From: a virus
Virus record (IMG/VR): IMGVR_UViG_3300042934_000658
Reading direction: 5' to 3' (one strand)
DNA: 35,247 nt
The notes beneath the pieces are model-generated. The model searched no databases and was not told where the DNA came from. It was given only the letters and a program-made list of their open reading frames with translations. Positions 8,825 through 35,247 of the stretch are shown here, one piece after another (the stretch's first letter is position 1; every line of letters starts with the position of its first letter). A program made the translations under genes and the position numbers.

Positions 8825-9439
8825 CTACTTAATGAGCGTGCAATATTCCTGCAACGCTAACGGGCGGCGACGTTCGAAAGACCTCCGTGAGATCTGCATT
8901 TCGTCGGCTACAGCGGAGATATCCAGGTTGTCCACGTACCTTAACCGCAGCAGCTTGGCATAGTCCGGCTTATAGGATTCGAGTACGACGAACACCTCAT
9001 CGATCCGCTTGATCTCTGCCCGGAGATCCTGGAGCTCACTCAGCCGTTCCAGTACATCATCAAGGTCGTACTTGCTTCCTGTTCTAGCATCAATGACTTT
9101 GGCAATCTTGGCTCTCAGTTCCTGCAGCGGTTTATCATCCTCCGGATATGCACCGATATCAGGAATGGCTTCACGTTGCGCCTTCACTCCAGATGGATAG
9201 AACTTCATGTATGCGTGAGCTGTAGACTCCAGCTCCTGCTCCCGCTTCGTGAGATACATATAGCTGGGCAACCCGCGAAGCCGGCGATGCAGCTGCTGCA
9301 GTTGGTCTTCTTCTGATAGCCGGCTAATAGCTATACCGCTTCCCACCTTATAATTGCCCAGTGCCTGGATGCGCGCCTGCTTCTGCCGGTAGCTTGATAG
9401 TTGTTCAATGGCCTGCTGCTCTCTCTGGTTGTCGGTCAT
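8825..9439 (-). CDS. Putative late-gene transcriptional activator with a sigma-70 region-4-like C-terminal HTH (ArpU/RinA-like role)
   Basis: The C-terminus LLRLRYVDNLDISAVADEMQISRRSFERRR resembles region 4. The gene sits immediately upstream of the packaging genes. Confidence 0.55.
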   Translation of the reverse strand: MTDNQREQQAIEQLSSYRQKQARIQALGNYKVGSGIAISRLSEEDQLQQLHRRLRGLPSYMYLTKREQELESTAHAYMKFYPSGVKAQREAIPDIGAYPEDDKPLQELRAKIAKVIDARTGSKYDLDDVLERLSELQDLRAEIKRIDEVFVVLESYKPDYAKLLRLRYVDNLDISAVADEMQISRRSFERRRPLALQEYCTLIK

Positions 9440-10693: not shown

Positions 10694-11464
10694 TTAACTG
10701 ATTTCTATACCGACATGCTTCTCTAGAGAGATCGGTGTCTTCCCCTTCATGAACATCGTGTGGCCTATTTTCTGTTCCAGCTCGACATACTGCTGATATA
10801 ATTCCGGGTTCCGTTCTGCCCCATGCCGTAAATCGTTGACACTTCCCATGATGCAGAACACACACGATAGGCGCTCATTCCGTTCATAGGTCCAGAAGGG
10901 CTTCTGTCCAGCTGCTTCAATCTCCTGGAATACTTCTTCGGTCGATAGGTCGAAGATCGGCATCCAATCCCATACATCCCGCACATTGCAGCTTTCCGAT
11001 ACATTGAAACGGATCGGCTGTTTCTTCGCGCGGGCTGCTGATTCTTCTGCGCGGATGCCCATGCAGTTGATTGCTAACTTCTGCGGGTTGGTCTGGCGGC
11101 TCCGAACATCGTGTCGAATGAATTTCATGATTGGGCTGCGCTTCAGGTCGCTGGTACACTGGCGGCAAGAGGACGACGGCCACATACCGCGTTCCTCAAC
11201 CATGCCGAGGAGTGTTTTCTCGTTGCCGTCCTTTTTGACTGCGTGGACGACATTTACGTAATGGTCAACATTCAGCCGAATATGCTCAATTACTCCGGGC
11301 CACTCAACGCCTTTGAGGTGCGCGTGTATAACAACAATCTGGTTGTAAGGGATGTGTTTACGGAGTAGAGCGTACATTGCTTGGCTGTCCTTGCCACCGG
11401 AGTGCGACACATAAAATGTTGCGCCGGCCTCGATAAATTCTTTTATCTGTGTAGGAATTTGCAA
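10694..11464 (-). CDS. PAPS reductase / PP-loop ATP pyrophosphatase family protein (DndC-like fold)
   Basis: The product has an N-terminal PP-loop YVSHSGGKDS and a C-terminal CVFC motif. Confidence 0.8.
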   Translation of the reverse strand: MQIPTQIKEFIEAGATFYVSHSGGKDSQAMYALLRKHIPYNQIVVIHAHLKGVEWPGVIEHIRLNVDHYVNVVHAVKKDGNEKTLLGMVEERGMWPSSSCRQCTSDLKRSPIMKFIRHDVRSRQTNPQKLAINCMGIRAEESAARAKKQPIRFNVSESCNVRDVWDWMPIFDLSTEEVFQEIEAAGQKPFWTYERNERLSCVFCIMGSVNDLRHGAERNPELYQQYVELEQKIGHTMFMKGKTPISLEKHVGIEIS

Positions 11465-11805: not shown

Positions 11806-12103
11806 GGCTTATATCTCCTTTCCCGAATATGCGATTCAGGAGCGGCTCTGCTCCCGGGAAGTAATCTCCCCGCTCCAAGATGGAACGATCATACCGGGCG
11901 AATACCCGGCTGTACTGGATGTCCTCGGCAATACACAGGTCAACCAAGTGTGCAGCTGTCAGGGCATAGTAATGGGCAATCTGCCCGGTATGGGTCTGGT
12001 AGCAGTGATACTGCCGCTGCAGCAGTACCACCTCGCCTACCAGCTCCTCGATGGCCATAACCTCCGGATCCTCGTTAATGTCGAAGAAAAAGAAGAAGAA
12101 CAT
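11795..12103 (-). CDS. Hypothetical protein (start uncertain; a TAATG overlap start would give MFFFFFFD...)
   Basis: The ATG at 12103 shares one base with the TAA stop of the upstream gene. An alternative start is MAIEEL. Confidence 0.45.
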   Translation of the reverse strand: MFFFFFFDINEDPEVMAIEELVGEVVLLQRQYHCYQTHTGQIAHYYALTAAHLVDLCIAEDIQYSRVFARYDRSILERGDYFPGAEPLLNRIFGKGDISHAR

Positions 12104-13104
12104 TAGTCGGTATCTGGCCGTGTAACGGCGGTAAGCATTTTTTTCATCCGCTCCATGGTCTCGATGAGTATATTCCCGCACTTTTCTGCAATCGCAGCAT
12201 CTTTACCTTTCACCGATGTAATAACTCCGAGAGCTGCGTTAAAACTATCTCCAAAGCTTTTAGTGTGAGCTTTAAACATTGCCGTATCTTCACCAGTAGT
12301 AGCCGCGGCCTTCTTGCGGAGCGTTTCCAGCTCCTGAAGGACTTCTGGAGGCGTCTCGTATACCGTTTGGGTTGCGGTGGTCACTTCTACCGGTTGCACC
12401 TTCATCTGTTCCTCCAGCTCGCGGATCCTTGCTTGAGAATCAATAAGCTGTTGTTCGGAGGTGGAGAGGGCTCCCCGCAGGCTATTTGCCTCTTCCTGCA
12501 ATTCGGCAGCTTTATCTTCATCACCGGAATCAGAAGCAGCTTGTGCCGCTTCGAGCTGTGCCTGCAGGCGCTGGACAATGATGGCATGGTCCTTCTGTTG
12601 TGTCTCCAGCTTCTCCCGGACTTTCCGTTCCTTCTCAGCCTTCTTTTCCGCCTCTTCCTTGGCCTTCTCCGCTGCCTCCCGCTCCCTCTCAGCTTGCTGC
12701 TTCTCCTTAATCGCTGCCTGAAGCTCCCGGGTCGTCATTTCGGATACGTTGTTTTCAACGACAAATGATTCCCGCTCCTCATCCGGAACACCCAGCAAGG
12801 CAACTGCCTGCGTATACGTCAAATTTGCAAACGCTTGGGAATTTGTGTTATCTCCGAAGAGACTGAGCTGATCGGAACCGTATTTTTCAAAGATGTTCAT
12901 CAGGTTGTTGGCCGTGCTTTGCTTATAATCAACCGAATCAGCAAGCCAGTTTCCCCACTCGCCATGCGGGAGCATAGCTTTTGCCTCTGTAAGCCGTCTG
13001 CCGATCTCCACGCTGGCGGAAAGCAGAATCCGCTGTGCCTGGTCCCGAATACTGTTAATCTCAATGGCAATGACTTCCGGTGTTCTCATACTTACTTGGC
13101 TCAT
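12103..13104 (-). CDS. DUF3102-family protein with a long coiled coil
   Basis: The N-terminus ...IEIGRRLTEAKAMLPHGEWGNWL...YKQSTANNLMNIF is the DUF3102 signature as I recall it. Confidence 0.7.
   Translation of the reverse strand: MSQVSMRTPEVIAIEINSIRDQAQRILLSASVEIGRRLTEAKAMLPHGEWGNWLADSVDYKQSTANNLMNIFEKYGSDQLSLFGDNTNSQAFANLTYTQAVALLGVPDEERESFVVENNVSEMTTRELQAAIKEKQQAEREREAAEKAKEEAEKKAEKERKVREKLETQQKDHAIIVQRLQAQLEAAQAASDSGDEDKAAELQEEANSLRGALSTSEQQLIDSQARIRELEEQMKVQPVEVTTATQTVYETPPEVLQELETLRKKAAATTGEDTAMFKAHTKSFGDSFNAALGVITSVKGKDAAIAEKCGNILIETMERMKKMLTAVTRPDTD
12828..12844. repeat. 17-mer caaacgcttgggaattt, copy 2 (inside the DUF3102 coding sequence)
   Basis: A perfect match to 8713..8729; the identity extends to 19 nt (to 12846 / 8731). 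Confidence 0.85.
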
Positions 13105-14669
13105 ACTGCTACCCCCTGGACTTTTTTAGATTTTGATTTGGTAGATAGTTTATCAAGACGTTCCCGCTTGAATGAATCCACAAATTCACTCACATCATCC
13201 GTCATGGAACAATTGCGTAGGCCGCGGCACTGCCTTACCTCATTACCTTTGACTTCCATCGTAAAGAATGGAGCATCTGGTTCTTCGGTCTGCCGGATAA
13301 GGAAAATAGTCGTTTCTCCGCTGGCATGCCGATCAGCATAAGTGCCGACACAGTGCTTCAGGATCTTCCCTTCTGCTATCAGCTCGTCACTACTTGCAGC
13401 AGGACGAAGAAGGAGATTTTCATCCGCAAAGCAGAATTTATTCAAAACTTCCAACCGCTTGGTAATTTGACGATTCAGAAGCTCGTCCGACTGGAGCTTT
13501 ACCTGTTTAGAAGTGTTCTCATGCGCTCTACGAAGGTTGGACGGGAATAACGTGTCCTCCTGCGTTAAGTCCATCTGAAGCTTTTTACAGTCTGAAAGAT
13601 AATCCCACCAATCGGTGATTACATCCCTGCCGTATTTAAAAATGTGGTTGTTAAGCTGCTTTCTGATGTATGATAATGCCTTTTGCACATTTACATACCG
13701 GAGCACGAGAGAAAATGAATGATAATCTCGGATATATTCTGCCAGTTCGAGAACATCGCGAACGGAAACTTTGGAACCGTCTTTTGCCGCTGTCTGCATG
13801 ATCTTTAATTCCTTCGGATCAACGGACCAGGCTCCGTCCAGAACTTCCTTGATTTGATGTTTGGTCAATCCAAGCACCTTCTGTATGCTTTTGGCACGCC
13901 ACTGAATGGCCCCGTAGGTCCTTCTCCCCTCAAGTTTGGCGACCACAAGTTCTCCCAAACCAAGCTTAGTAAGGTATTCAATGCAAGGATACTTAGCGTA
14001 GAAATCGAAGAATTTGACCATGTCTCCATCTTTATATCTATCCCACGTGGAATATTGAAATGGCGTCCCGGCTATCGATTGCTTGATACTCTCCATTGAA
14101 ACGAAACATTCTTTATGCGCCATCGCGCTGCCCGCCTGGCTAAACACTCCGCTCCTCCGGTTCCAATCATAGTCAAGTCCCTTGATTCCGTTATCACTAT
14201 CCCAATACCACAGGCCGCAACTATACATAATCCCGCCAGCTCCCGGTTCAAAGAGGTAGGCTGTGTGCAGCGCCATGACCGTTTCAACATTCGTGTAATC
14301 ACCAGTGTAATTCCGTACTGCAAGAAATCCACGAGCTATGATTGCGTTAGGATTTATTACCGATTTTTCGTAATAAACAAAGTAGGCTTCATCAACTAGC
14401 CGTATTCTGCTTATGCCACTTGCTTTTACCGTGCATTCAGAGCTGCAGTGTGGGCAGGTGCTCCGCTTGTTATGCTTTAACCCCACTGTTTCAAACTCTT
14501 GCTTACAATGAGTGCAGAAACCAAACTGCTTTTTACCGCGACGTTTCGTAAAAATGTACCGGCTATGGCGGAATACTGTATCAATAGCGAAGTCATGAAT
14601 TTTCTGGCTTTCCTCTGTGGGGAAGTGCGCAAAGAACTTCTGTTCAGCAGATACATCAGTCTTTTTCAT
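13101..14669 (-). CDS. PcfJ-like protein with an N-terminal zinc finger
   Basis: The C-terminus EGKILKHCVGTYADRHASGETTIFLIRQ...FFTMEV...VRQCRGLRN matches the PcfJ signature. The N-terminus has CTHC...CPHC. Confidence 0.7.
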   Translation of the reverse strand: MKKTDVSAEQKFFAHFPTEESQKIHDFAIDTVFRHSRYIFTKRRGKKQFGFCTHCKQEFETVGLKHNKRSTCPHCSSECTVKASGISRIRLVDEAYFVYYEKSVINPNAIIARGFLAVRNYTGDYTNVETVMALHTAYLFEPGAGGIMYSCGLWYWDSDNGIKGLDYDWNRRSGVFSQAGSAMAHKECFVSMESIKQSIAGTPFQYSTWDRYKDGDMVKFFDFYAKYPCIEYLTKLGLGELVVAKLEGRRTYGAIQWRAKSIQKVLGLTKHQIKEVLDGAWSVDPKELKIMQTAAKDGSKVSVRDVLELAEYIRDYHSFSLVLRYVNVQKALSYIRKQLNNHIFKYGRDVITDWWDYLSDCKKLQMDLTQEDTLFPSNLRRAHENTSKQVKLQSDELLNRQITKRLEVLNKFCFADENLLLRPAASSDELIAEGKILKHCVGTYADRHASGETTIFLIRQTEEPDAPFFTMEVKGNEVRQCRGLRNCSMTDDVSEFVDSFKRERLDKLSTKSKSKKVQGVAV

Positions 14670-18958: not shown

Positions 18959-19297
18959 ATGATGGATAACGAATTTGGTATCTCTGATAATTTGAAGATT
19001 TTAAGAAAACGCTATGGCCTAACACAACAGGAACTGGCTGAAATTGCTGGAGTTACTAATAAAGCGGTATCCGCTTGGGAAAGAGGACAAAAAGAGCCTC
19101 GTATGGGTGCGATTGAGCGTATTTCAAAGCACTTCAATATCAAAAAGAGTAATTTAATTGAACATGGCGGAATGGATATTTTGGGTCCGGACCTTAGTAA
19201 TGCAATTGCTCTCAGCTTTGGCAGTGAGGTTTTTTCAGAAAAAGAAATCGAAGACATCGTAAATTACATCAACTACGTGAAGGCTAAGCGTAATTAA
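18959..19297 (+). CDS. CI-like XRE-family repressor without a recognisable S24 peptidase domain
   Basis: The N-terminal HTH is LRKRYGLTQQELAEIAGVTNKAVSAWERGQKEP. The protein is 112 aa, co-oriented with int and divergent from the cro-like gene. Confidence 0.7.
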   Translation: MMDNEFGISDNLKILRKRYGLTQQELAEIAGVTNKAVSAWERGQKEPRMGAIERISKHFNIKKSNLIEHGGMDILGPDLSNAIALSFGSEVFSEKEIEDIVNYINYVKAKRN

Positions 19298-19614: not shown

Positions 19615-20812
19615 GTACCGGCTTATTGCTGAGCTTGGGTATGACGCCAAAGGCAAGCGTATCCGCCAGACTACAACAATCACACTTGATCATAAACCTA
19701 AAAAGGGAGAACTGGATTTAGCTGCAGCCAGGTTTGAAGAGAGTGTCATTAATGGGGAATGGAAAAAGCGCGGTATTGTCGGATTTGAAGCATTTGTACT
19801 GGGCGACTGGAAGAAGAATTATGCTGAGATTGAAATGGGGGAATACACCTGCTTCAATACTATGAGAATAATTGAAGGCCGACTGATTCCCGAGTTTGGT
19901 CGCTTTCAGCTTGATCAAATAAGTACAATTCACTTGGTTCGGTACTTCACGTCCTTGCGAGCTCCTGACGCCCGTAAGGACAAACGCAAAGGACCTTTGG
20001 CTACAAATACCTTACTTAACATTTACAAAGCTTTAAAATCAATATTTGACGCCGCTCATGAGTGGCAGATAATAACCAAAAATCCGATGGATGGAGTAAA
20101 AAGACCTACTGCTGATAAAATTGAGAAGCGCGCCCTAAAGAAACGCAAACGCTCATACTCTCCAAAAGAGGTGGAACGATTAATTACAGCCCTTTATAAG
20201 GAGCCGGAAAACTGGAAGCTGTACTTTATCGGTGTGTTGGTGGGTGGATATCGTCGAGGCGAATATTTAGCCGTGGAATGGCCAGCTGCGGATTTCCAAA
20301 TGTCTAGAATTTATGTAGAAAGGCAGATCACCTTTGACAGTGATGGGCAAGCCACTGAAGGAGAATTAAAAACACTTGAGTCCGAGGGTTTTGTGCCGAT
20401 GCCTCGCTGGTACATGACTGAGTTGAACGCATTTAGGATGAAAGAAATTAGAGCAAGGTTACGAATGGCACCGAATGACTGGAAAGGAGGCGACAGACAT
20501 TTTATATTTCACTCCGGCCATGGCGAACCTTACTATCCAAACACTCCATCAGCAACATGGAGAAAATTCCTGGATAAGTGCGGGCTTCCAAGAGTGCGCT
20601 TGCACGATCTGCGACACACAACGGCAATGTTGCTGCGTGAGTACGGCGCAGACGTCAGAGCAATTCAAAGTCAGCTACGACATTCGAAATTGGCAACTAC
20701 CACAGACACCTATATGGAACGGGATAATACGTTTATTCCCGAAGGTGACAACTTACTGGAAGTTTTGGACCCAAATCGAATTGATGGACACCAAATGGAC
20801 ACCACAAGTTAA
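19583..20812 (+). CDS. int: Tyrosine integrase
   Basis: The 409-aa product has an arm-binding N-terminus, a core-binding domain and a catalytic region with ...RLHDLRHT... and a C-terminal Y in ATTTDTYMER. Confidence 0.95.
   Translation: MPNWTKRGENKYRLIAELGYDAKGKRIRQTTTITLDHKPKKGELDLAAARFEESVINGEWKKRGIVGFEAFVLGDWKKNYAEIEMGEYTCFNTMRIIEGRLIPEFGRFQLDQISTIHLVRYFTSLRAPDARKDKRKGPLATNTLLNIYKALKSIFDAAHEWQIITKNPMDGVKRPTADKIEKRALKKRKRSYSPKEVERLITALYKEPENWKLYFIGVLVGGYRRGEYLAVEWPAADFQMSRIYVERQITFDSDGQATEGELKTLESEGFVPMPRWYMTELNAFRMKEIRARLRMAPNDWKGGDRHFIFHSGHGEPYYPNTPSATWRKFLDKCGLPRVRLHDLRHTTAMLLREYGADVRAIQSQLRHSKLATTTDTYMERDNTFIPEGDNLLEVLDPNRIDGHQMDTTS
20786..20804 (+). repeat. Pair of GGACACCA motifs 11 bp apart (candidate arm-type sites, P arm)
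   Basis: atGGACACCAaatGGACACCAc lies within the 3' end of int. Confidence 0.5.
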
Positions 20813-20849
20813 ATGTAGTCTGTCCATGTCGAATAATTGGCAAACAAAA

Positions 20850-20870
20850 AACCCTTGTAGGGCAAGGGTT
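20850..20870 (-). terminator. Intrinsic terminator just 3' of the tRNA-derived core (minus strand)
   Basis: The sequence aacccttg-taggg-caagggtt is followed on the minus strand by TTTTTGTTTG. Confidence 0.6.
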
Positions 20871-20887
20871 ACGAGACAAAATTAGTA

Positions 20888-20935
20888 TGGAGCGGGTGAT
20901 GGGAATCGAACCCACGCTATCAGCTTGGAAGGCTG
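20888..20935 (-). other. attP core: the 3' 48 nt of a tRNA-Gly(UCC)-like gene (anticodon stem to CCA end), not a complete tRNA
   Basis: The minus strand reads CAGCC-TTCCAAG-CTGATAGC-GTGGG-TTCGATT-CCCAT-CACCCGC-T-CCA. No matching 5' acceptor strand or D-arm lies upstream. Confidence 0.8.
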
Positions 20936-21049
20936 TTCCTAGGGTATGAACCAGATGGAATAAGCCGCATAATATTAGGTTTTCAGCGAGTCCGCGAGAG
21001 GAATGTTTCGCGGATTCGCGCATATGAACGCATATGGATGATTACGACC

Positions 21050-21068
21050 GGACACCAATCGGACACCA
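21050..21068 (+). repeat. Pair of GGACACCA motifs 11 bp apart (candidate arm-type sites, P' arm)
   Basis: The sequence is cGGACACCAatcGGACACCAgg. It has the same orientation and period as the pair at 20786..20804. Confidence 0.5.
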
Positions 21069-21085: not shown

Positions 21086-21355
21086 CTAATTAAAATCGAT
21101 GCCATCTATGTCTTTCCCCAAAGCCAAAGATATACGTTTCGCAAGGTGTGGAGAAATAACTGATGGTCTCTTTTCAATTTTCATTAACCTTTCTTCGGAT
21201 ATTTCTAGCGCAGCAGCCAACTGTTGTGTTGAAATCCCCGCCTTCTCCCTCGCTACAGTAATTGTAGGTATATTACTGATTTCATCACCCAAAACACATA
21301 CTCCCCTTCTATATACTAAAAATAAGAACTTATGTTCCCAATTATAATCGGTCAA
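21086..21355 (-). CDS. XRE-family HTH protein (start uncertain, possibly an internal TTG)
   Basis: The product contains ...TVAREKAGISTQQLAAALEISEERLMKIEKR.... Confidence 0.6.
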   Translation of the reverse strand: MTDYNWEHKFLFLVYRRGVCVLGDEISNIPTITVAREKAGISTQQLAAALEISEERLMKIEKRPSVISPHLAKRISLALGKDIDGIDFN

Positions 21356-21430: not shown

Positions 21431-21661
21431 ATGAGACTCCGTCAAGGGAGCTGCCTGCTGCCAGATATTCGGAAGTCTCGGGGAAAGACACAAGAGCAGG
21501 TTTGCACTGCTCTTAAGAATGAGTTAGGGGTGGAAATGTCCCCTTCCTACTTCTCCAGGATCGAGAAAGGCATTGCACCTCTGACTCTGCTACAAGCCAG
21601 AGCAATATGCATTGTACTGGCTTGTACCGAGCAACAACTTTATCACTATACGCAAGACTAG
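21431..21661 (+). CDS. XRE-family HTH protein, divergent from 21086..21355
   Basis: The RBS is TAGGAGGGAAC. The product contains ...SRGKTQEQVCTALKNELGVEMSPSYFSRIEKG.... An upstream extended -10 TGgTATAAT is present. Confidence 0.7.
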   Translation: MRLRQGSCLLPDIRKSRGKTQEQVCTALKNELGVEMSPSYFSRIEKGIAPLTLLQARAICIVLACTEQQLYHYTQD

Positions 21662-21888
21662 GCAGCAGGCTGGAGCATTTATTGCTCCCCCGTGACACAA
21701 AAATGAACTAAGCACGAAATAAAACTTTAAGTCAATACTTTTTCATCGGTTGAATACATTTCTAATTAAACCCCTTTTAAGATAAAATGTATAGTTGAAC
21801 TCGGATTCTAAAATAGGCTTTTCGACACCATAATTCGACAAACAAGTTATCGTTTTTATGGTATATTGTTTAATTAGCAAATAAAAAA

Positions 21889-21910
21889 AGCCACCTATAA
21901 GCCGGAGGCT
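21889..21910. terminator. Bidirectional terminator at the end of the agr-like operon
   Basis: The hairpin agccacc-tataagcc-ggaggct is flanked by an A7 run and a T7 run. Confidence 0.6.
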
Positions 21911-21920
21911 TTTTTTATTA

Positions 21921-22283
21921 TTAAGCATATACAATTGTGTGCGATGCTTTTCTTTTAATTTCTTTTATTCGATCTTCGGCCAATGGACAGTATTTTCCTC
22001 TTCTTTCGGCTGAAAAATAAGCCCGGCAAAAAAACTTGTCCACCAACTGAATTGCATCTACATTAATAACCCCGATCCTATCAGCACGAGCGAAATTGTA
22101 TCCATTAAGCTTAAACAGGTCCAACCAGTAAACCAATGTTCCTACCGTATAATAGGTGTTTAATTCAGTATGCACAATAATTCTTTTTTCAGAGCGAAGA
22201 TATTCAATAAATAAAATTTGATTTATAAGAACAGAGAATAATCCGCTGCCGTCGACTTCTTTTGTCACTGATATTGAGTGCAT
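21921..22283 (-). CDS. LytTR-domain DNA-binding protein lacking a receiver domain
   Basis: The 120-aa product contains ...ILFIEYLRSEKRIIVHT...FARADRIGVINVDAI.... The ATG at 22283 is preceded by GGAGG. Confidence 0.75.
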   Translation of the reverse strand: MHSISVTKEVDGSGLFSVLINQILFIEYLRSEKRIIVHTELNTYYTVGTLVYWLDLFKLNGYNFARADRIGVINVDAIQLVDKFFCRAYFSAERRGKYCPLAEDRIKEIKRKASHTIVYA

Positions 22284-22294
22284 ATAAACCTCCA

Positions 22295-22414
22295 CTACAG
22301 CAATTCTTCTGGAACTTCCCCTTCGTACACATACAGTAAGCTCGCTGTACTAAGCGATCCTACAGCAACAACTGACAATAATGTTGCGAGTAAAGATAGA
22401 GCGCGACGTTTCAT
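22295..22414 (-). CDS. agrD: AgrD-like autoinducing-peptide precursor (39 aa, no cysteine)
   Basis: This ORF is not in the supplied track. Its product is MKRRALSLLATLLSVVAVGSLSTASLLYVYEGEVPEELL. The RBS is GGGAGGTGA, the start lies 3 nt after the agrB stop, and the tail is an acidic EVPEEL like the AgrD EVPKEL. Confidence 0.65.
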   Translation of the reverse strand: MKRRALSLLATLLSVVAVGSLSTASLLYVYEGEVPEELL

Positions 22415-22417
22415 TCT

Positions 22418-22939
22418 TCATTTCACCTCCCTCCATGTAATTAAAGTAAGACCTTGCACCAAAAAGCACAGAGTAAGTGTTGTTGATTGGAAGAAAAAAC
22501 TGCTGGATACAATTAATACAGAAAGAATTTTTAAACCAGGATAGTATCGTCTCGGTATTCGATTTTGCTGTCTAATTCTAGAAGGCGCATATACTATGTA
22601 AAGGATGATGCTAACTACATTGAGTATCTGAATATATTGCAATTCCAGGTGTATCAGAGAAAGTATTGTGAATGTAGTTGTTGTAGCTAAAACACACTTC
22701 ATTCCCGACTTCAGATGAATACCTCCAGAAATTTGTCTTATAGAAGCAAAGACAATCAGTAGAATAATCACTTCCTTTGTCCGGCTGGTTACGAATGATA
22801 CAAGTAATGTTCCAATAATAATGAAAGCCGTATTAAGCATAATGGCGAGTGAATATTTCAGGACAGCTACCGAAGCTTTATGATCGGGAATATTTCGTTT
22901 TATCCCTTCTGCCATTTTTAATGCTAGTGTTTCAATCAT
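22418..22939 (-). CDS. agrB: AgrB-family membrane cysteine endopeptidase
   Basis: The product contains RQISGGIHLKSGMKC, with His and Cys 7 residues apart as in S. aureus AgrB H77/C84. It also has a VYAP motif and multiple TM helices. The ATG at 22939 follows GGGAGAGGGAAG. Confidence 0.85.
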   Translation of the reverse strand: MIETLALKMAEGIKRNIPDHKASVAVLKYSLAIMLNTAFIIIGTLLVSFVTSRTKEVIILLIVFASIRQISGGIHLKSGMKCVLATTTTFTILSLIHLELQYIQILNVVSIILYIVYAPSRIRQQNRIPRRYYPGLKILSVLIVSSSFFFQSTTLTLCFLVQGLTLITWREVK

Positions 22940-23561
22940 CTTCCCTCTCCCTTTTAAAAGAGTAGTACAAGAAAAACATAGAAAGCAGGAAGAAAACAAG
23001 AATATTCATGTAAATTTCTTTGTAGTACAGCAAAACAGATATGCCTAACAAAAAACCAATAATAGTTATTGTAAGCGCTATATCCTCAAACTTAAATCGT
23101 AATTTCTCAAATTCAAAATTAAACCCTTTGCCCATGTGGTAAAGGAAATAGGCTCCGACTATAAGAACAATAGCGCTGATTACCTGCAGCAAATATCCAT
23201 TTACGATACTATTATCTATTGCGCTTATTGATCCAAAAAACAATAACACAATGCAAGTCTGCGTCACAGCAAAAATCACATACCCGGCGATCGTTGCAAG
23301 TAAAGAAAATATCAATGGAAGTTTTACCACAACTGTAAAGAAGATTGTAAATAACATGATACTGATTACCGGCGCAACATTTGCCATAGATAAATCATTT
23401 CTCAGAAGATAACTTTGGAGGTTCATTAGAAGGATGAAAAAAAGCACTTGCCATGCGTACCAACTCCACTTAAACCTAAACAAGCACATTATTAAAAAGT
23501 ACATAGAGAACGCTTCAATAGTTGAAAAAAACATAAAACCTACGGGCTCCCACGACAACAT
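22932..23561 (-). CDS. Polytopic membrane protein (6-8 TM), resembling an AgrC sensor module without a kinase domain or an HdrM/BrsM-type LytTR inhibitor
   Basis: The 209-aa product is almost entirely hydrophobic helices and ends ...FKREREDD right after the last TM. An ATGATTGA overlap couples it to agrB. Confidence 0.65.
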   Translation of the reverse strand: MLSWEPVGFMFFSTIEAFSMYFLIMCLFRFKWSWYAWQVLFFILLMNLQSYLLRNDLSMANVAPVISIMLFTIFFTVVVKLPLIFSLLATIAGYVIFAVTQTCIVLLFFGSISAIDNSIVNGYLLQVISAIVLIVGAYFLYHMGKGFNFEFEKLRFKFEDIALTITIIGFLLGISVLLYYKEIYMNILVFFLLSMFFLYYSFKREREDD

Positions 23562-23670
23562 GCAACACCACCTGACATAATTTTCATTTGACGCAATCAT
23601 TATACCGCCAAAAACCTAAAACCGTATATCAGAATGTGCGACTTTTGCATACTTGAATATTCATGACATA

Positions 23671-23699
23671 AATATATACTCGTACAAGTATATTGTCAA
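23671..23699 (-). promoter_or_regulatory. Promoter of the agr-like operon: TTGACA-17-TATATT
   Basis: The -35 is at 23694..23699 and the -10 at 23671..23676. The 17-nt spacer is one of the two palindromic operators. Confidence 0.55.
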
Positions 23700-23726
23700 T
23701 AAATATTTAATACTTGTACGAGTATA
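23675..23726. promoter_or_regulatory. Two copies of an 18-bp near-palindrome TATACT-N6-AGTATA, which together form a perfect 17-bp inverted repeat
   Basis: tatactcgtacaagtat (23675..23691) is the exact reverse complement of atacttgtacgagtata (23710..23726). One copy lies in each of the two divergent promoters. Confidence 0.8.
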
Positions 23727-23753: not shown

Positions 23754-23975
23754 ATGGTGAGCATATTGGAGGAATCTAAAAGAAGCCCAGCATCACGGGC
23801 AAAGATGAAATACAACGCCAAAAACTATGAACGAATCCCCTTAGATGTCAAAATAGGCACCAAAGCAATCTATAAGGCTGCAGCTGCGGCAGAGAATCTA
23901 AGTCTAAATGCTTTTATCCAGAAGGCCATAGAAGAAAAAATGGATCGAAAATCAAAGGAAACCCCGCCAGCATAA
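23754..23975 (+). CDS. Ribbon-helix-helix (CopG/Arc/HicB-C-like) DNA-binding protein
   Basis: The product contains ...IPLDVKIGTKAIYKAAAAAENLSLNAFIQKAIEEKM. The start codon is uncertain. Confidence 0.55.
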   Translation: MVSILEESKRSPASRAKMKYNAKNYERIPLDVKIGTKAIYKAAAAAENLSLNAFIQKAIEEKMDRKSKETPPA

Positions 23976-23992
23976 TCGTTGACGGGGTTTCC
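23957..23992. terminator. Bidirectional terminator between the RHH gene and the end of the late/lysis operon
   Basis: The stem ggaaaccccg ... cggggtttcc is 10 bp, with extra inner pairs and T-rich flanks on both strands. Confidence 0.7.
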
Positions 23993-24083
23993 TTTACATG
24001 ATTTCTTGGATATCACCTGAAACTCCTAATAATGTGTCGTCCAGTAGTCTGTGTTGCCTGAATTGATTTGTAACCCATACTCC

Positions 24084-24100
24084 CAAACGCTTGGGAATTT
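24084..24100. repeat. 17-mer caaacgcttgggaattt, copy 3 (abuts the endolysin stop codon)
   Basis: A perfect match to 8713..8729. Here the hairpin is tcccaa-acgc-ttggga (24081..24096). Confidence 0.85.
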
Positions 24101-24731
24101 ACTTTTTTGCAACGACAAACGTCAACCATGCAAGCTCGGATGTTGTCAGTGTCCTTTTGTCGATCTTATCCAGCCAGGATGTGTCACTGATCGTCTTAGC
24201 GTCCAGGAGCGCCTTAACTCCTGCGCGGAGTGTTGTCCATTGATAGTTTGACAGTTCCAATTCTTCGTCCTCCTTGATGGCCTCAACGGCCTTATTATAT
24301 AGCTCCAACTCCGCCATGCGGCGGCGGACCAGCCCGGGCAACACATTGCCGCCGCCCTTGTTGTACTTGGTGATGTTATCGGCAATCTGCGCAATTGTGC
24401 GGCCCTTACAAAGCTGCTGCAGACTACCATTGCCGCAGTTATAGGTAAAGCTTACAAGAGCATCAAACTGGTTTTGATTGAGTTGCGCTGTCACCGGTAC
24501 ATAAGACGGGCTGTTAACGTATCCCTCATACTTGGCGAGATCCGTCACCAGCATGCTATCAGCCTGGGCCTGTGAGATAGTCATGCCCTCGTTAACATTA
24601 GGGCCATAGTGGCCCCAGCCAATTGTCCAATATTGCTCTGTCGGCACTGGCTTGTATGCCTTGAGGCGGCATCCTTCATAATTTTTAATCAGCTTGATGC
24701 CCGTTCCTGATATTTTACGACTCATTTCCAT
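24099..24731 (-). CDS. Endolysin: GH24 lysozyme domain plus a C-terminal putative wall-binding region
   Basis: The product contains ...IKNYEGCRLKAYKPVPTEQYWTIGWGHYG...FDALVSFTYNCG.... Confidence 0.9.
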   Translation of the reverse strand: MEMSRKISGTGIKLIKNYEGCRLKAYKPVPTEQYWTIGWGHYGPNVNEGMTISQAQADSMLVTDLAKYEGYVNSPSYVPVTAQLNQNQFDALVSFTYNCGNGSLQQLCKGRTIAQIADNITKYNKGGGNVLPGLVRRRMAELELYNKAVEAIKEDEELELSNYQWTTLRAGVKALLDAKTISDTSWLDKIDKRTLTTSELAWLTFVVAKK

Positions 24732-24736
24732 TCCCC

Positions 24737-25246
24737 CTATGCAGATTGGTCATTGTCTGGATGCTCCGGCTTAGCTGGATTGTTCTTGCTCTTGTCCTCG
24801 CTCAGCTGTAGTAAATAATCCTTGAGCTTGTCCGGAAGAGGTACGCCGATAACTCCGAAATTTTCCACAACTGAAAGCGCCTCGCGGCCAGCATAAAATA
24901 GTATGGCAGCCATCCGAAATATTGGAGCACCTGGCTGAACCCATTCATCTACCAAGGCCGCTAGTCCGACTACAAAGAGCACGGTCACTTTGCGAATCCC
25001 GCCCCAGAACATAATGTCACTACTGACTGTCTTGGTCTTAAACGCTCCTGCTACACCGCTGGCATAGTCAGCCAGCATGAGAACTATGAGAAGTTCAAGT
25101 GGTTTGTCATATCCACCCAACCAACCTGCAGCCATAGCAAGCAATCCAGTAATTGAGGCTACGCCTCCTACTGCTATTTCTCGACTTCCAGATCCGATAG
25201 CTGCCGTGAATACCGTTGTTACAATATGTCTGATTTGATTAATCAT
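24737..25246 (-). CDS. Holin (phage_holin_4-like, multi-TM)
   Basis: The ATG at 25246 follows AAGGAGG. Several TM helices are present, and the gene lies immediately upstream of the endolysin. Confidence 0.7.
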   Translation of the reverse strand: MINQIRHIVTTVFTAAIGSGSREIAVGGVASITGLLAMAAGWLGGYDKPLELLIVLMLADYASGVAGAFKTKTVSSDIMFWGGIRKVTVLFVVGLAALVDEWVQPGAPIFRMAAILFYAGREALSVVENFGVIGVPLPDKLKDYLLQLSEDKSKNNPAKPEHPDNDQSA

Positions 25247-25442
25247 GTTGTTCCTCCTTATTTCTGTCTTCATCACTTTGTTCTGGCATAAGAATATTCA
25301 GCCGTTCATCCAGTGCAGCGCGGATTCCCTCAAGGAACTTTACTTCTTGACCAGGGAAGAATGTGCCGACAGCCGATATTACCGCGCATACCTCACTTAC
25401 AGTAGGCTCGATTTCAATTACCAGTTTGTTTTGTACTCTCAT
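25239..25442 (-). CDS. Hypothetical small protein
   Basis: The ATG at 25442 follows GAAAGGA, and the ORF overlaps the holin start by 8 nt. Confidence 0.45.
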   Translation of the reverse strand: MRVQNKLVIEIEPTVSEVCAVISAVGTFFPGQEVKFLEGIRAALDERLNILMPEQSDEDRNKEEQHD

Positions 25443-35002: not shown

Positions 35003-35191
35003 CTATAAGACTTGATCAATGTATCCTGTCGGCACATGTGCAGATGAACTGATCCGGCGCTTCATGAGCCGGAAATAGAGTCCGATGTCCATCTCATCAA
35101 TTTGGCTGAGCGTCATGCCTTCTTGCATCCGCGACAGGTAAAACCGTTCGATAAATTCCAGAGGGTCTAAGCCCTCACTCTGACGTTTGGG
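35003..35191 (-). CDS. -1 frame extension (gpT-like part) of the tail assembly chaperone GT fusion
   Basis: My translation from the slippery site reads KRQSEGLDPLEFIERFYLSRMQEGMTLSQIDEMDIGLYFRLMKRRISSSAHVPTGYIDQVL, then TAG at 35003..35005. That stop lies 11 nt before the tape measure start. Confidence 0.6.
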   Translation of the reverse strand, partial: PKRQSEGLDPLEFIERFYLSRMQEGMTLSQIDEMDIGLYFRLMKRRISSSAHVPTGYIDQVL

Positions 35192-35247
35192 TCCGGCTCC
35201 GCTCCGGCATCTTCATTCAATTTCCCGAACACACGCTTCTGAAGTTC
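35121..35247. repeat. Terminal direct repeat copy 2 (identical to 1..127)
   Basis: See copy 1. Confidence 0.9.

Follow-up and report, generated by a model that had tools for sequence, protein, structure and literature searches.

The agr system is the textbook case of a peptide signal that is read by a two-component phosphorelay. A phage-encoded peptide signal is found in the arbitrium system of SPbeta-like phages (AimR-AimP-AimX): a linear hexapeptide is imported and is bound by a cytoplasmic receptor of the TPR type. Here we describe an agr-type cassette in the virus record IMGVR_UViG_3300042934_000658 from IMG/VR (35,247 nucleotides; we refer to this whole stretch as the window). The cassette consists of four close-packed genes on the minus strand, at positions 21921-23561, which encode a membrane protein with seven transmembrane helices (7-TM), the peptidase AgrB, the peptide precursor AgrD, and a protein with a LytTR domain only.

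Phage-borne agr genes are already known from phiCDHM1, a phage of Clostridioides difficile (PMC3901668, PMC11945551). Receiver-less LytTR regulators are known as well: in HdrRM and BrsRM of Streptococcus mutans, such a regulator is paired with a membrane inhibitor, the regulator gene is upstream, and the signals are unknown (PMC6193735). The membrane proteins of these LytTR regulatory systems belong to other families, such as DUF2154, and the promoters contain 9-bp direct repeats that are spaced 12 bp apart (PMC6193735). The only signalling mode that has been described for a LytTR/membrane pair is that the membrane protein keeps the regulator inactive (PMC6193735). What appears to be undescribed is the coupling of an agr synthesis pair to a membrane protein without a kinase and a LytTR effector without a receiver. 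In a full-text search of an incomplete collection, we found no paper that joins LytTR regulatory systems with AgrB or that describes a kinase-less agr cassette.

An agr-type signalling module on a temperate phage

The locus is almost certainly a genuine and intact agr-type peptide-signal module on a temperate phage. AgrB is matched by PF04647 from Pfam with 74.7 bits (the cut-off is 23). Its motif RQISGGIHLKSGMKC (RQISGGIH-LKSGMK-C) has a His-Cys spacing of 7, a VYAP motif is also present, and the His/Cys dyad is kept in the AgrB proteins of homologous cassettes. The LytTR protein is matched by PF04397 with 31.3 bits (the cut-off is 22.6) across residues 15-112 of 120. AgrD is matched by TIGR04223 from NCBIfam with 36.2 bits (the cut-off is 19). 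These three identifications agree with an earlier annotation of the window that was made without database searches (the sequence-only reading), except that a Pfam scan of the 39-residue AgrD gave no match, including to PF05931, the family that had been suggested for it.

The layout is also as the sequence-only reading had it. The 7-TM gene and agrB overlap by 8 nt (ATGATTGA), agrB and agrD are separated by 3 nt, and the 11-nt gap between agrD and the LytTR gene contains GGAGG. The reading frame of the 7-TM gene stays open as far as an ATG at 23600, and we considered this alternative start; the extension that it would add (NENYVRRCC) is translated from the conserved 5' untranslated region (UTR) and the ribosome-binding site. 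We place the start at the ATG at 23561 because homologues, the ribosome-binding site AGGTGGTG, and independent gene calls agree on it.

Like a moron or lysogenic-conversion locus, the cassette has its own promoters (P1 and P2) and terminators, lies between the lysis genes and attP, and deviates in composition. The TTGACA-17-TATATT promoter, the bidirectional terminator, and the AT-rich slot had all been noted before, and we recovered each of them (Table 1). The cassette is 35.9% GC, versus 50.4% in the rest of the genome, and is about 0.85 kb from attP. A GC content below that of the flanks was found for the cassette in all 14 contexts that we tested.

Table 1. Coordinates of the cassette, of its surroundings in the window, and of related cassettes (positions without a locus label are in the window)
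Feature	Position	Strand	Details
7-TM gene	22932-23561	-	209 aa
agrB	22418-22939	-	173 aa; AgrD-processing membrane peptidase
agrD	22295-22414	-	39-aa autoinducing-peptide precursor
LytTR-only gene	21921-22283	-	120-aa DNA-binding protein
P1 promoter	23699-23671	-	TTGACA-17-TATATT; 11/12 consensus positions; best sigma-70-like site in the region
P2 promoter	23599-23628	-	TATACG-N18-TATAAT; cassette-native; followed by a short conserved 5' UTR and ribosome-binding site AGGTGGTG (23562-23598)
Inverted repeat TATACTCGTACAAGTAT / ATACTTGTACGAGTATA	23675-23691 / 23710-23726	.	Perfect, 17 bp, 18-nt spacer; spans P1
Bidirectional intrinsic terminator	21880-21919	.	16-nt arms with A-run and T-run flanks; closes the operon
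Convergent terminator	23954-23995		Insulates the cassette from the lysis operon
Mobile module shared with L005	21418-23588	-	5' UTR, four cassette genes, terminator, HTH76 gene
XRE-type HTH gene (HTH76)	21431-21661	+	76 aa; convergent with the cassette; HTH_31/HTH_3 match
HTH gene	21086-21355		Occupies the place held by a second LytTR-only paralogue in relatives
RHH/HicB-like gene	23754-23975	+	73 aa; divergent; weak HicB match (E = 0.0055); neighbour peculiar to the window phage
attP region	20786-21068		tRNA/tmRNA-like 3' fragment (~20885-20950) between two pairs of GGACACCA arm-type repeats
CI-like repressor	18959-19297		112 aa; HTH domains only
Lysis genes	24099-25276
Davies cassette	L053:2104-4519		gp44-gp48; two tandem 7-TM paralogues
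Harrison cassette	L054:2840-4504		gp38-gp41
GGDEF-EAL cassettes	L016:5001-8279; L017:1820-5098		JGI metagenomes
Loci with AgrB absent	L029, L035-L039
Loci with AgrB truncated	L023, L027, L032, L046

Search for kinase and receiver domains

We scanned 29 open reading frames (ORFs) of the phage with Pfam. This set includes each coding-strand ORF that reaches 200 aa and several that are shorter, but not the shadow ORFs of the opposite strand or the majority of the short ORFs. HisKA, HATPase_c, and Response_reg were not found in any of the 29, which agrees with the sequence-only reading as far as the kinase is concerned. Neither a TPR protein nor an AimR-like protein was found among the scanned ORFs. 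For related cassettes whose neighbours are annotated with Pfam, no kinase or receiver domain was found beside the cassette. Of the four components expected in a system of the agrBDCA type, the cassette has AgrB and AgrD but lacks an AgrC-type (HPK10) kinase and an AgrA-type regulator (receiver plus LytTR).

Because the LytTR domain fills the 120-aa protein, there is no room for a receiver domain. The best PDB match to a profile of the cassette LytTR proteins was the LytTR domain of AgrA (E = 0.0024). (A structure model of the LytTR protein, built from a four-sequence alignment, had a pLDDT of 45 and was not used.) We consider the 120-aa LytTR-only protein to be the candidate output regulator of the cassette.

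In the distant cassettes of L016 and L017 (related loci are given as L numbers), AgrD is followed by a gene for a 606-aa protein in which a LytTR-like domain at the N-terminus is fused to GGDEF-EAL. Since these two loci carry the fusion, the LytTR-like module stays in the cassette while the output changes. The domain content of the fusion suggests that peptide sensing may be linked to cyclic di-GMP turnover in these two loci. The retention of the LytTR-like domain alongside a different output also suggests that this domain could be the module that docks with the membrane protein.

Some loci have a second LytTR-only paralogue (125-140 aa) past the cassette (L013:12335-12757, L057:2679-3092, and L058:2840-3217). 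In L057 and L058, a convergent small XRE gene separates this paralogue from the cassette; in L013, the paralogue follows the first LytTR gene at a distance of about 0.55 kb.

The seven-helix membrane protein

The 7-TM protein was modelled by AlphaFold2 with seven transmembrane helices and a pLDDT of 83.8. An N-out/C-in topology is supported by the distribution of lysine and arginine (10 inside versus 2 outside). The invariant residues across the family are F9, F12, S13, E16, R29, R54, G93, F97, Y123, Q126, G144, and G146. Of these, F9, F12, S13, and E16 are at the outer end of the first transmembrane helix, and Y123 and Q126 are at the outer end of the fifth. A conserved cytoplasmic loop begins at G144 (GxGFxF-EKLRFK-ED).

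We searched for relatives of this protein with several methods. It has no match in Pfam or NCBIfam. Foldseek returned nothing usable (the best E values were 3.3 for PDB and 3.5 for BFVD), and no transmembrane structure of AgrC was matched in PDB. A profile built from the 7-TM alignment matched no PDB sequence. When 42 diverse members of the family were compared to Pfam and NCBIfam at E ≤ 10, no family was matched by more than two members, and DUF2154 was not a consistent match. The curated libraries contain no model for the transmembrane domain of the AgrC that we tested, so those negative results are uninformative about descent from AgrC.

The 7-TM protein is widespread. In a profile search of 1.84 billion representative proteins (E ≤ 1e-3), we found at least 481 clusters of its family at 50% identity. 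The 150 clusters that were listed are all stand-alone proteins of 75-242 aa; most are about 205-240 aa, and none is of kinase length. The homologues (about 208 aa) are called "hypothetical" where they are named, and none of the members that we looked up has a functional name. Since the 7-TM gene occupies the position of agrC in the operon, we view its product as a candidate receptor for the autoinducing peptide (AIP) and a candidate partner of the LytTR protein.

The predicted peptide

About 35 AgrD peptides of the family align in a single register. A small residue, which is Ala in most cases, precedes S-x-x-[YFL]-[VI]; five residues and P-[EK]-[ED]-L follow. One of these peptides, from L040, carries Cys at the Ser position (NCFLFW), five residues ahead of the cleavage site. 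Because this Cys aligns with the Ser of the family, the ring residue is fixed. For the AgrD of the window, we predict a Ser-lactone ring of S-L-L-Y-V, followed by the tail YEGEVPEELL. The conserved small residue at position -1 relative to the Ser suggests that the leader may be removed by signal peptidase.

The sequence of the ring differs between species (SVLYV, SVLFI, SPVYV, SFVYI, and others), a variation that resembles the specificity groups of agr. Within our sample, the SLLYV ring is found only in the clade of the window (the window, L005, L057, and L058). Two of these four, the window and L005, are in clear phage contexts; the other two are short contigs that have DUF7667-like genes upstream.

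In L053:4025-4144 (phage Davies), L054:4013-4141 (phage Harrison), and L019:1287-1409, the peptide ends in K-V-[FS]-[LVI]-G-x-x-x-x-P-[KQ]-E-L.

Distribution of the cassette

The combination of genes is not peculiar to this phage: the cassette is found in Bacillales chromosomes, in metagenomic relatives, and in four cultured phages. The gene order (7-TM, AgrB, AgrD, LytTR) is the same in relatives whose 7-TM proteins range in identity from 93% to about 23% (the distant cases are L015 and L019). In Paenibacillus chromosomes, the 7-TM gene, AgrB, a 44-aa ORF, and the LytTR gene are found amid ordinary metabolic genes. The named members of the 7-TM family are from Paenibacillus, Brevibacillus laterosporus, and Priestia megaterium, and nearly all of the close named homologues are from Paenibacillus. 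Most copies of the cassette lie outside of recognisable prophages. Judging from these genomes, the cassette is a conserved mobile module of the chromosomes of Paenibacillus and other Bacillales.

Across 31 species-level loci from Paenibacillus, 19 have the 7-TM gene, a full-length AgrB, and the LytTR gene; two lack LytTR; and in the other 10, AgrB has been lost or truncated (Table 1). In all 10 of these, the 7-TM and LytTR genes are intact and adjacent, with a gap between them that is short or AgrD-sized. Some of the AgrB-deficient loci retain an AgrD-like ORF or a remnant of one. By their gene content, these loci look like signal-negative "listener" variants.

These loci bear on the main rival to the receptor hypothesis. 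In that view, the 7-TM protein would help the cell to make, export, or tolerate the peptide, for instance as a protease that removes the leader or as an exporter, and the LytTR protein would be constitutive or would be controlled by host factors or by the host's AgrC/AgrA. There is a precedent for an accessory: MroQ assists the agr system of Staphylococcus aureus, and the maturation of the AIP requires a second cleavage that is not performed by AgrB. The tight translational coupling of the 7-TM gene to agrB would suit a biosynthetic partner, and the receptor role lacks support from homology. Persistence of the 7-TM/LytTR pair without AgrB would be expected of a receptor and its effector, which could survive as an "orphan" listener, rather than of an aid to synthesis. 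Also, none of the invariant residues of the 7-TM protein is a His, and they form no motif of the CAAX, rhomboid, or S2P type; the protein has no match to a protease in Pfam; one of its strongly conserved segments is the cytoplasmic loop; and phiCDHM1 has the sensor AgrC at the equivalent position in the operon. An accessory role is therefore unlikely.

Another possibility is that the 7-TM and LytTR proteins form a LytTR regulatory system that senses some other signal, such as envelope stress, while AgrB and AgrD act independently and the peptide is read by a host AgrC. The occurrence of the pair without AgrB would fit with this scenario, as would the unknown nature of the signals to which LytTR regulatory systems respond, which may be something other than peptides (PMC6193735). 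Also, the canonical agr loci of Paenibacillus could read such peptides (PMC12180512). But in most copies, and across a very wide divergence, agrB and agrD are located between the other two genes with overlapping or nearly abutting frames, an arrangement that would be difficult to account for if the genes were not functionally coupled. Also, the phage clade shows high conservation of both the 7-TM protein and the peptide ring. We consider this scenario to be highly unlikely.

The cassette is shared with an unrelated phage. A different 40-kb phage contig (L004/L005), with another lysis cassette and another integrase, has the same four genes in the same slot. By blastn, the window and L005 are 82% identical over 2176 nt (23588-21418 in the window), and otherwise share only one match of 88 nt. 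This shared module includes the small XRE gene, which is also found beside the cassette in L055-L058, L019, and L051.

Between the window and L005, the 7-TM gene has a dN/dS of 0.039, AgrB of 0.116, AgrD of 0.092, and LytTR of 0.153, with dS at 0.5-1.0. The 7-TM gene is the most constrained of the four, and the peptide ring is identical. These ratios indicate strong purifying selection on each of the four genes in the phage copies. This is difficult to reconcile with the cassette being inert cargo, that is, a decaying remnant of a host agr system that has hitch-hiked into the phage. Its AT-rich, foreign composition and the truncated AgrB variants in some genomes might be taken as signs of decay. 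Against this, the four ORFs are intact; dN/dS is low (0.04-0.15) at substantial dS; the catalytic His/Cys, the ribosome-binding sites, and the promoter are conserved; and near-identical copies of the window's cassette are present in other samples. We regard inert cargo as very improbable.

Clear phage contexts comprise the window, L004/L005, L010/L047 (which have tail, amidase, or lysozyme genes upstream), and four cultured phages. (From ten matches in IMG/VR, we counted only those with clear phage neighbours; the others were ambiguous or were next to genes of mobile elements, for example for a serine recombinase or for a protein like TrwB.) The cassette has thus been captured by phages repeatedly.

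The cultured phages came to light only by way of AgrB. With the cassette as the query, blastn against 50,697 phage records gave no match, and tblastn with the 7-TM protein gave none either. But tblastn with AgrB identified the Brevibacillus phages Davies and Abouo and the Paenibacillus larvae phages Harrison and Paisley. We inspected the annotated regions of Davies and Harrison (Table 1). The 7-TM profile matches Davies with E = 1e-40 and Harrison with E = 5e-37; the corresponding values are 2e-40 and 5e-37 for AgrB, and 3e-4 and 7e-7 for the LytTR family. In the published annotations of these phages, the LytTR gene is a "peptidase" and the peptide gene is a "hypothetical protein," which can now be corrected. 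The genome papers for the cultured phages list an "AgrB family protein" in tables only and do not discuss it.

Proposed mechanism

Since the 7-TM protein lacks a kinase module and the LytTR protein lacks a receiver, we propose that they communicate by direct protein contact. On balance, and by analogy with HdrRM/BrsRM, we favour a mechanism in which the 7-TM protein would sense the peptide made by AgrB and AgrD (the Ser-lactone SLLYV) and would control the LytTR protein without phosphotransfer. AgrB would cut the C-terminal tail from AgrD and cyclise the peptide through Ser to give the S-L-L-Y-V lactone, and signal peptidase would remove the leader. The 7-TM protein would be the receptor for the secreted peptide. 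It would hold the LytTR protein at the membrane or release it, probably via the loop GxGFxF-EKLRFK-ED, which is how HdrRM/BrsRM operate. Once freed, the LytTR regulator would act on P2 and on targets in the host or the phage. Autoregulation of the cassette would also be expected by analogy.

Several observations weigh against this mechanism. First, no homology of the 7-TM family was detected, either to the families in Pfam and NCBIfam or to the structures in PDB and BFVD. Compared to the AgrC sensor of phiCDHM1 and C. difficile, hhalign gave a probability of 0.2% and hmmsearch found nothing, with one narrow clade of AgrC in the comparison. Since homology was not detected, the case for a receptor is made by gene context alone. 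Second, the chemistry differs within the family, since in Davies, Harrison, and L019 the peptide at the AgrD position lacks a Ser or Cys where the ring would be closed. Third, the loci without AgrB might be remnants in decay and not orphan receptors that still function. Fourth, the order of the genes is reversed relative to HdrRM/BrsRM (PMC6193735): the membrane gene comes first in the cassette and the regulator comes last. Fifth, when we scanned about 40 upstream regions, we did not find a consistent pair of LytTR-type direct repeats (9-12-9).

The cassette ties a defined AgrB/AgrD peptide genetically to a membrane/LytTR pair that has neither a kinase nor a receiver. With four small genes and a synthetic pentapeptide, direct and phosphorylation-independent peptide sensing becomes testable. 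Also, the cultured carriers, which infect B. laterosporus and the honey-bee pathogen P. larvae, offer a ready system for studying signalling between lysogens or the rewiring of hosts. In a bolder proposal, the 7-TM proteins would be a widespread new family of phosphorylation-free AIP receptors that directly gate both LytTR regulators and LytTR-GGDEF-EAL enzymes, which would provide the first defined ligand for LytTR regulatory systems. Temperate phages of Paenibacillus and Brevibacillus would have taken up private peptides (in the window, the SLLYV ring) to count their own lysogens and to tune induction or lysogenisation. We put this forward as speculation and consider it unlikely.

Promoters and phage surroundings

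Two promoters precede the cassette. P1 is not found in related cassettes, which align with the window only from 23588 onward. In contrast, the geometry of P2, TATAC(G)-N18-19-TATAAT, is conserved upstream of many chromosomal and phage copies. In the scan of about 40 upstream regions, this core and an AT-rich block were the only conserved elements. Within the window's genome, the P2-type site has a single match. A block that is conserved upstream of relatives, GTAGTAAATAAGTAGTATAC, is missing from the window, even at three mismatches.

The promoter and the 5' UTR (TATACG-N18-TATAAT ... GAAAATTATGTCAGGCGGTG) are conserved at the nucleotide level among cassettes whose proteins are only 33-60% identical, and more so than the coding sequences are. 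We observed this in L001, L005, L009, L013, L025-L030, L045, L048, and the window (23562-23628). Such conservation suggests that a regulatory site may lie within or near the 5' UTR of the cassette.

P1 is spanned by a perfect 17-bp inverted repeat, whose half-site is found nowhere else in the window. The repeat covers overlapping promoter-like sites that diverge towards the cassette and towards the 73-aa gene. It is probably an operator that is specific to the window's phage, and the cassette is probably controlled by a phage-specific repressor via P1 and this repeat. The 73-aa RHH/HicB-like protein is a possible candidate for that repressor. Given P1, the terminators on both sides, and the proximity of attP, expression of the module from the prophage seems likely.

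The window is the complete genome, of about 35.1 kb, of a temperate siphophage whose host genus is Paenibacillus. It has an exact terminal direct repeat of 127 bp (1-127 = 35121-35247). Given these identical ends, the window is a complete phage genome that is either circularly permuted or has direct terminal repeats. The genes include capsid, portal, TerL, tape-measure, Dit, tail proteins, holin, lysozyme, a tyrosine integrase, and the 112-aa CI-like HTH repressor. The attP region contains all four of the genome's copies of GGACACCA (at 20786, 20797, 21050, and 21061), with the members of each pair 11 bp apart. In between is a fragment that matches the 3' end of tmRNA in Rfam. A complete tRNA was not found at attP, and the only other matches in the Rfam search of the window were terminator-like and below threshold.

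The early region (8825-9439, 10694-11464, and 12103-14669) encodes an ECF-sigma-like protein of 204 aa, a protein with a PAPS-reductase domain, a DUF3102 protein, and a PcfJ-like protein. PcfJ domains are typical of conjugative plasmids.

The phage setting raises the question of whether the cassette is an arbitrium-like channel, which the sequence-only reading had proposed as one possibility. Lysogens or infected cells would secrete the SLLYV peptide, and the LytTR protein would feed into the decision between lysis and lysogeny or into induction. Such a role would be compatible with the mechanism that we favour, and several features make it attractive. At least five temperate lineages carry the cassette by the lysogeny or integration region or at the end of the prophage (the window, L004/L005, L010/L047, Davies/Abouo, and Harrison/Paisley). 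The SLLYV ring is confined to the window's clade, the small XRE regulator travels with the module, and all four genes are maintained by selection in the phage copies. As the sequence-only reading had noted, the CI-like repressor has no self-cleavage domain; a domain scan found HTH domains and no Peptidase_S24. But most copies of the cassette are chromosomal and have no recognisable phage genes near them, and in the window it is insulated by its own promoter and by terminators. The P2 element occurs once in the genome, so it is shared with no regulatory promoter of the phage, and we found no LytTR-type repeats at the CI or Cro regions. We found no direct support for the proposal and consider it rather unlikely, although the repeated capture of the module beside phage integration modules speaks in its favour.

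Comparison with known systems

Like arbitrium, the cassette would give a temperate phage of the Bacillales a secreted peptide, a receptor, and a regulator. In contrast to arbitrium, the cassette would use a cyclic peptide of the AgrD type and a putative membrane sensor, and its link to the lysis-lysogeny switch is hypothetical.

With agrBDCA of S. aureus, the cassette shares the His/Cys peptidase AgrB, the E-x-P-x-E-L tail of AgrD, a five-residue ring that is closed by Ser or Cys, and a LytTR output. It differs in that there is no AgrC kinase and no receiver in the regulator, with the 209-aa 7-TM protein and the 120-aa LytTR-only protein in their place. The order of genes is sensor-B-D-regulator instead of B-D-C-A, and the ring residue is Ser (giving a lactone) in nearly all members, whereas it is Cys in S. 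aureus.

HdrRM and BrsRM resemble the other half of the cassette: a receiver-less LytTR regulator is co-transcribed with a polytopic membrane protein, and there is no phosphorelay. In the cassette, unlike in these systems, agrB and agrD lie between the two genes, the membrane protein is from an unannotated family, and clear repeats were not found.

As in the window, the agr genes of phiCDHM1 follow the endolysin and precede the integrase, and the membrane gene comes first, with an 8-nt overlap with agrB, and then agrD (PMC3901668). The order is AgrC-AgrB-AgrD, and the 7-TM gene of the window sits where agrC sits. The sequence-only reading had held that the window differs from phiCDHM1 in both composition and gene order. 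The difference in composition stands, and the difference in order does not: phiCDHM1 has a full 453-aa kinase sensor and no regulator, while the cassette has no kinase, has a dedicated LytTR-only gene, and has no detected similarity to AgrC.

A genome of C. difficile offers a closer parallel to the 7-TM/LytTR pair. At L021:4001-5295 (GCA_016053945.1), a kinase-less homologue of the AgrC sensor, which is 219 aa and consists only of the transmembrane region, is followed by a 113-aa LytTR-only gene. The 219-aa protein is 51% identical to the AgrC sensor of phiCDHM1 (51-57% identical to the transmembrane domain of a real AgrC), and its cluster has 751 member sequences. We found no description of this pair. 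It could be a kinase-less pair that is derived from AgrC and AgrA, or a conserved remnant of an agr system. It has no adjacent agrBD, and its sensor-like protein has no detectable similarity to the 7-TM family of Paenibacillus. Yet it shares with the cassette a sensor-like protein of the same size that is transmembrane-only, and a LytTR-only gene that comes next. By its domain content, the C. difficile locus is an independent precedent for the pairing of a kinase-less sensor with a LytTR-only protein.

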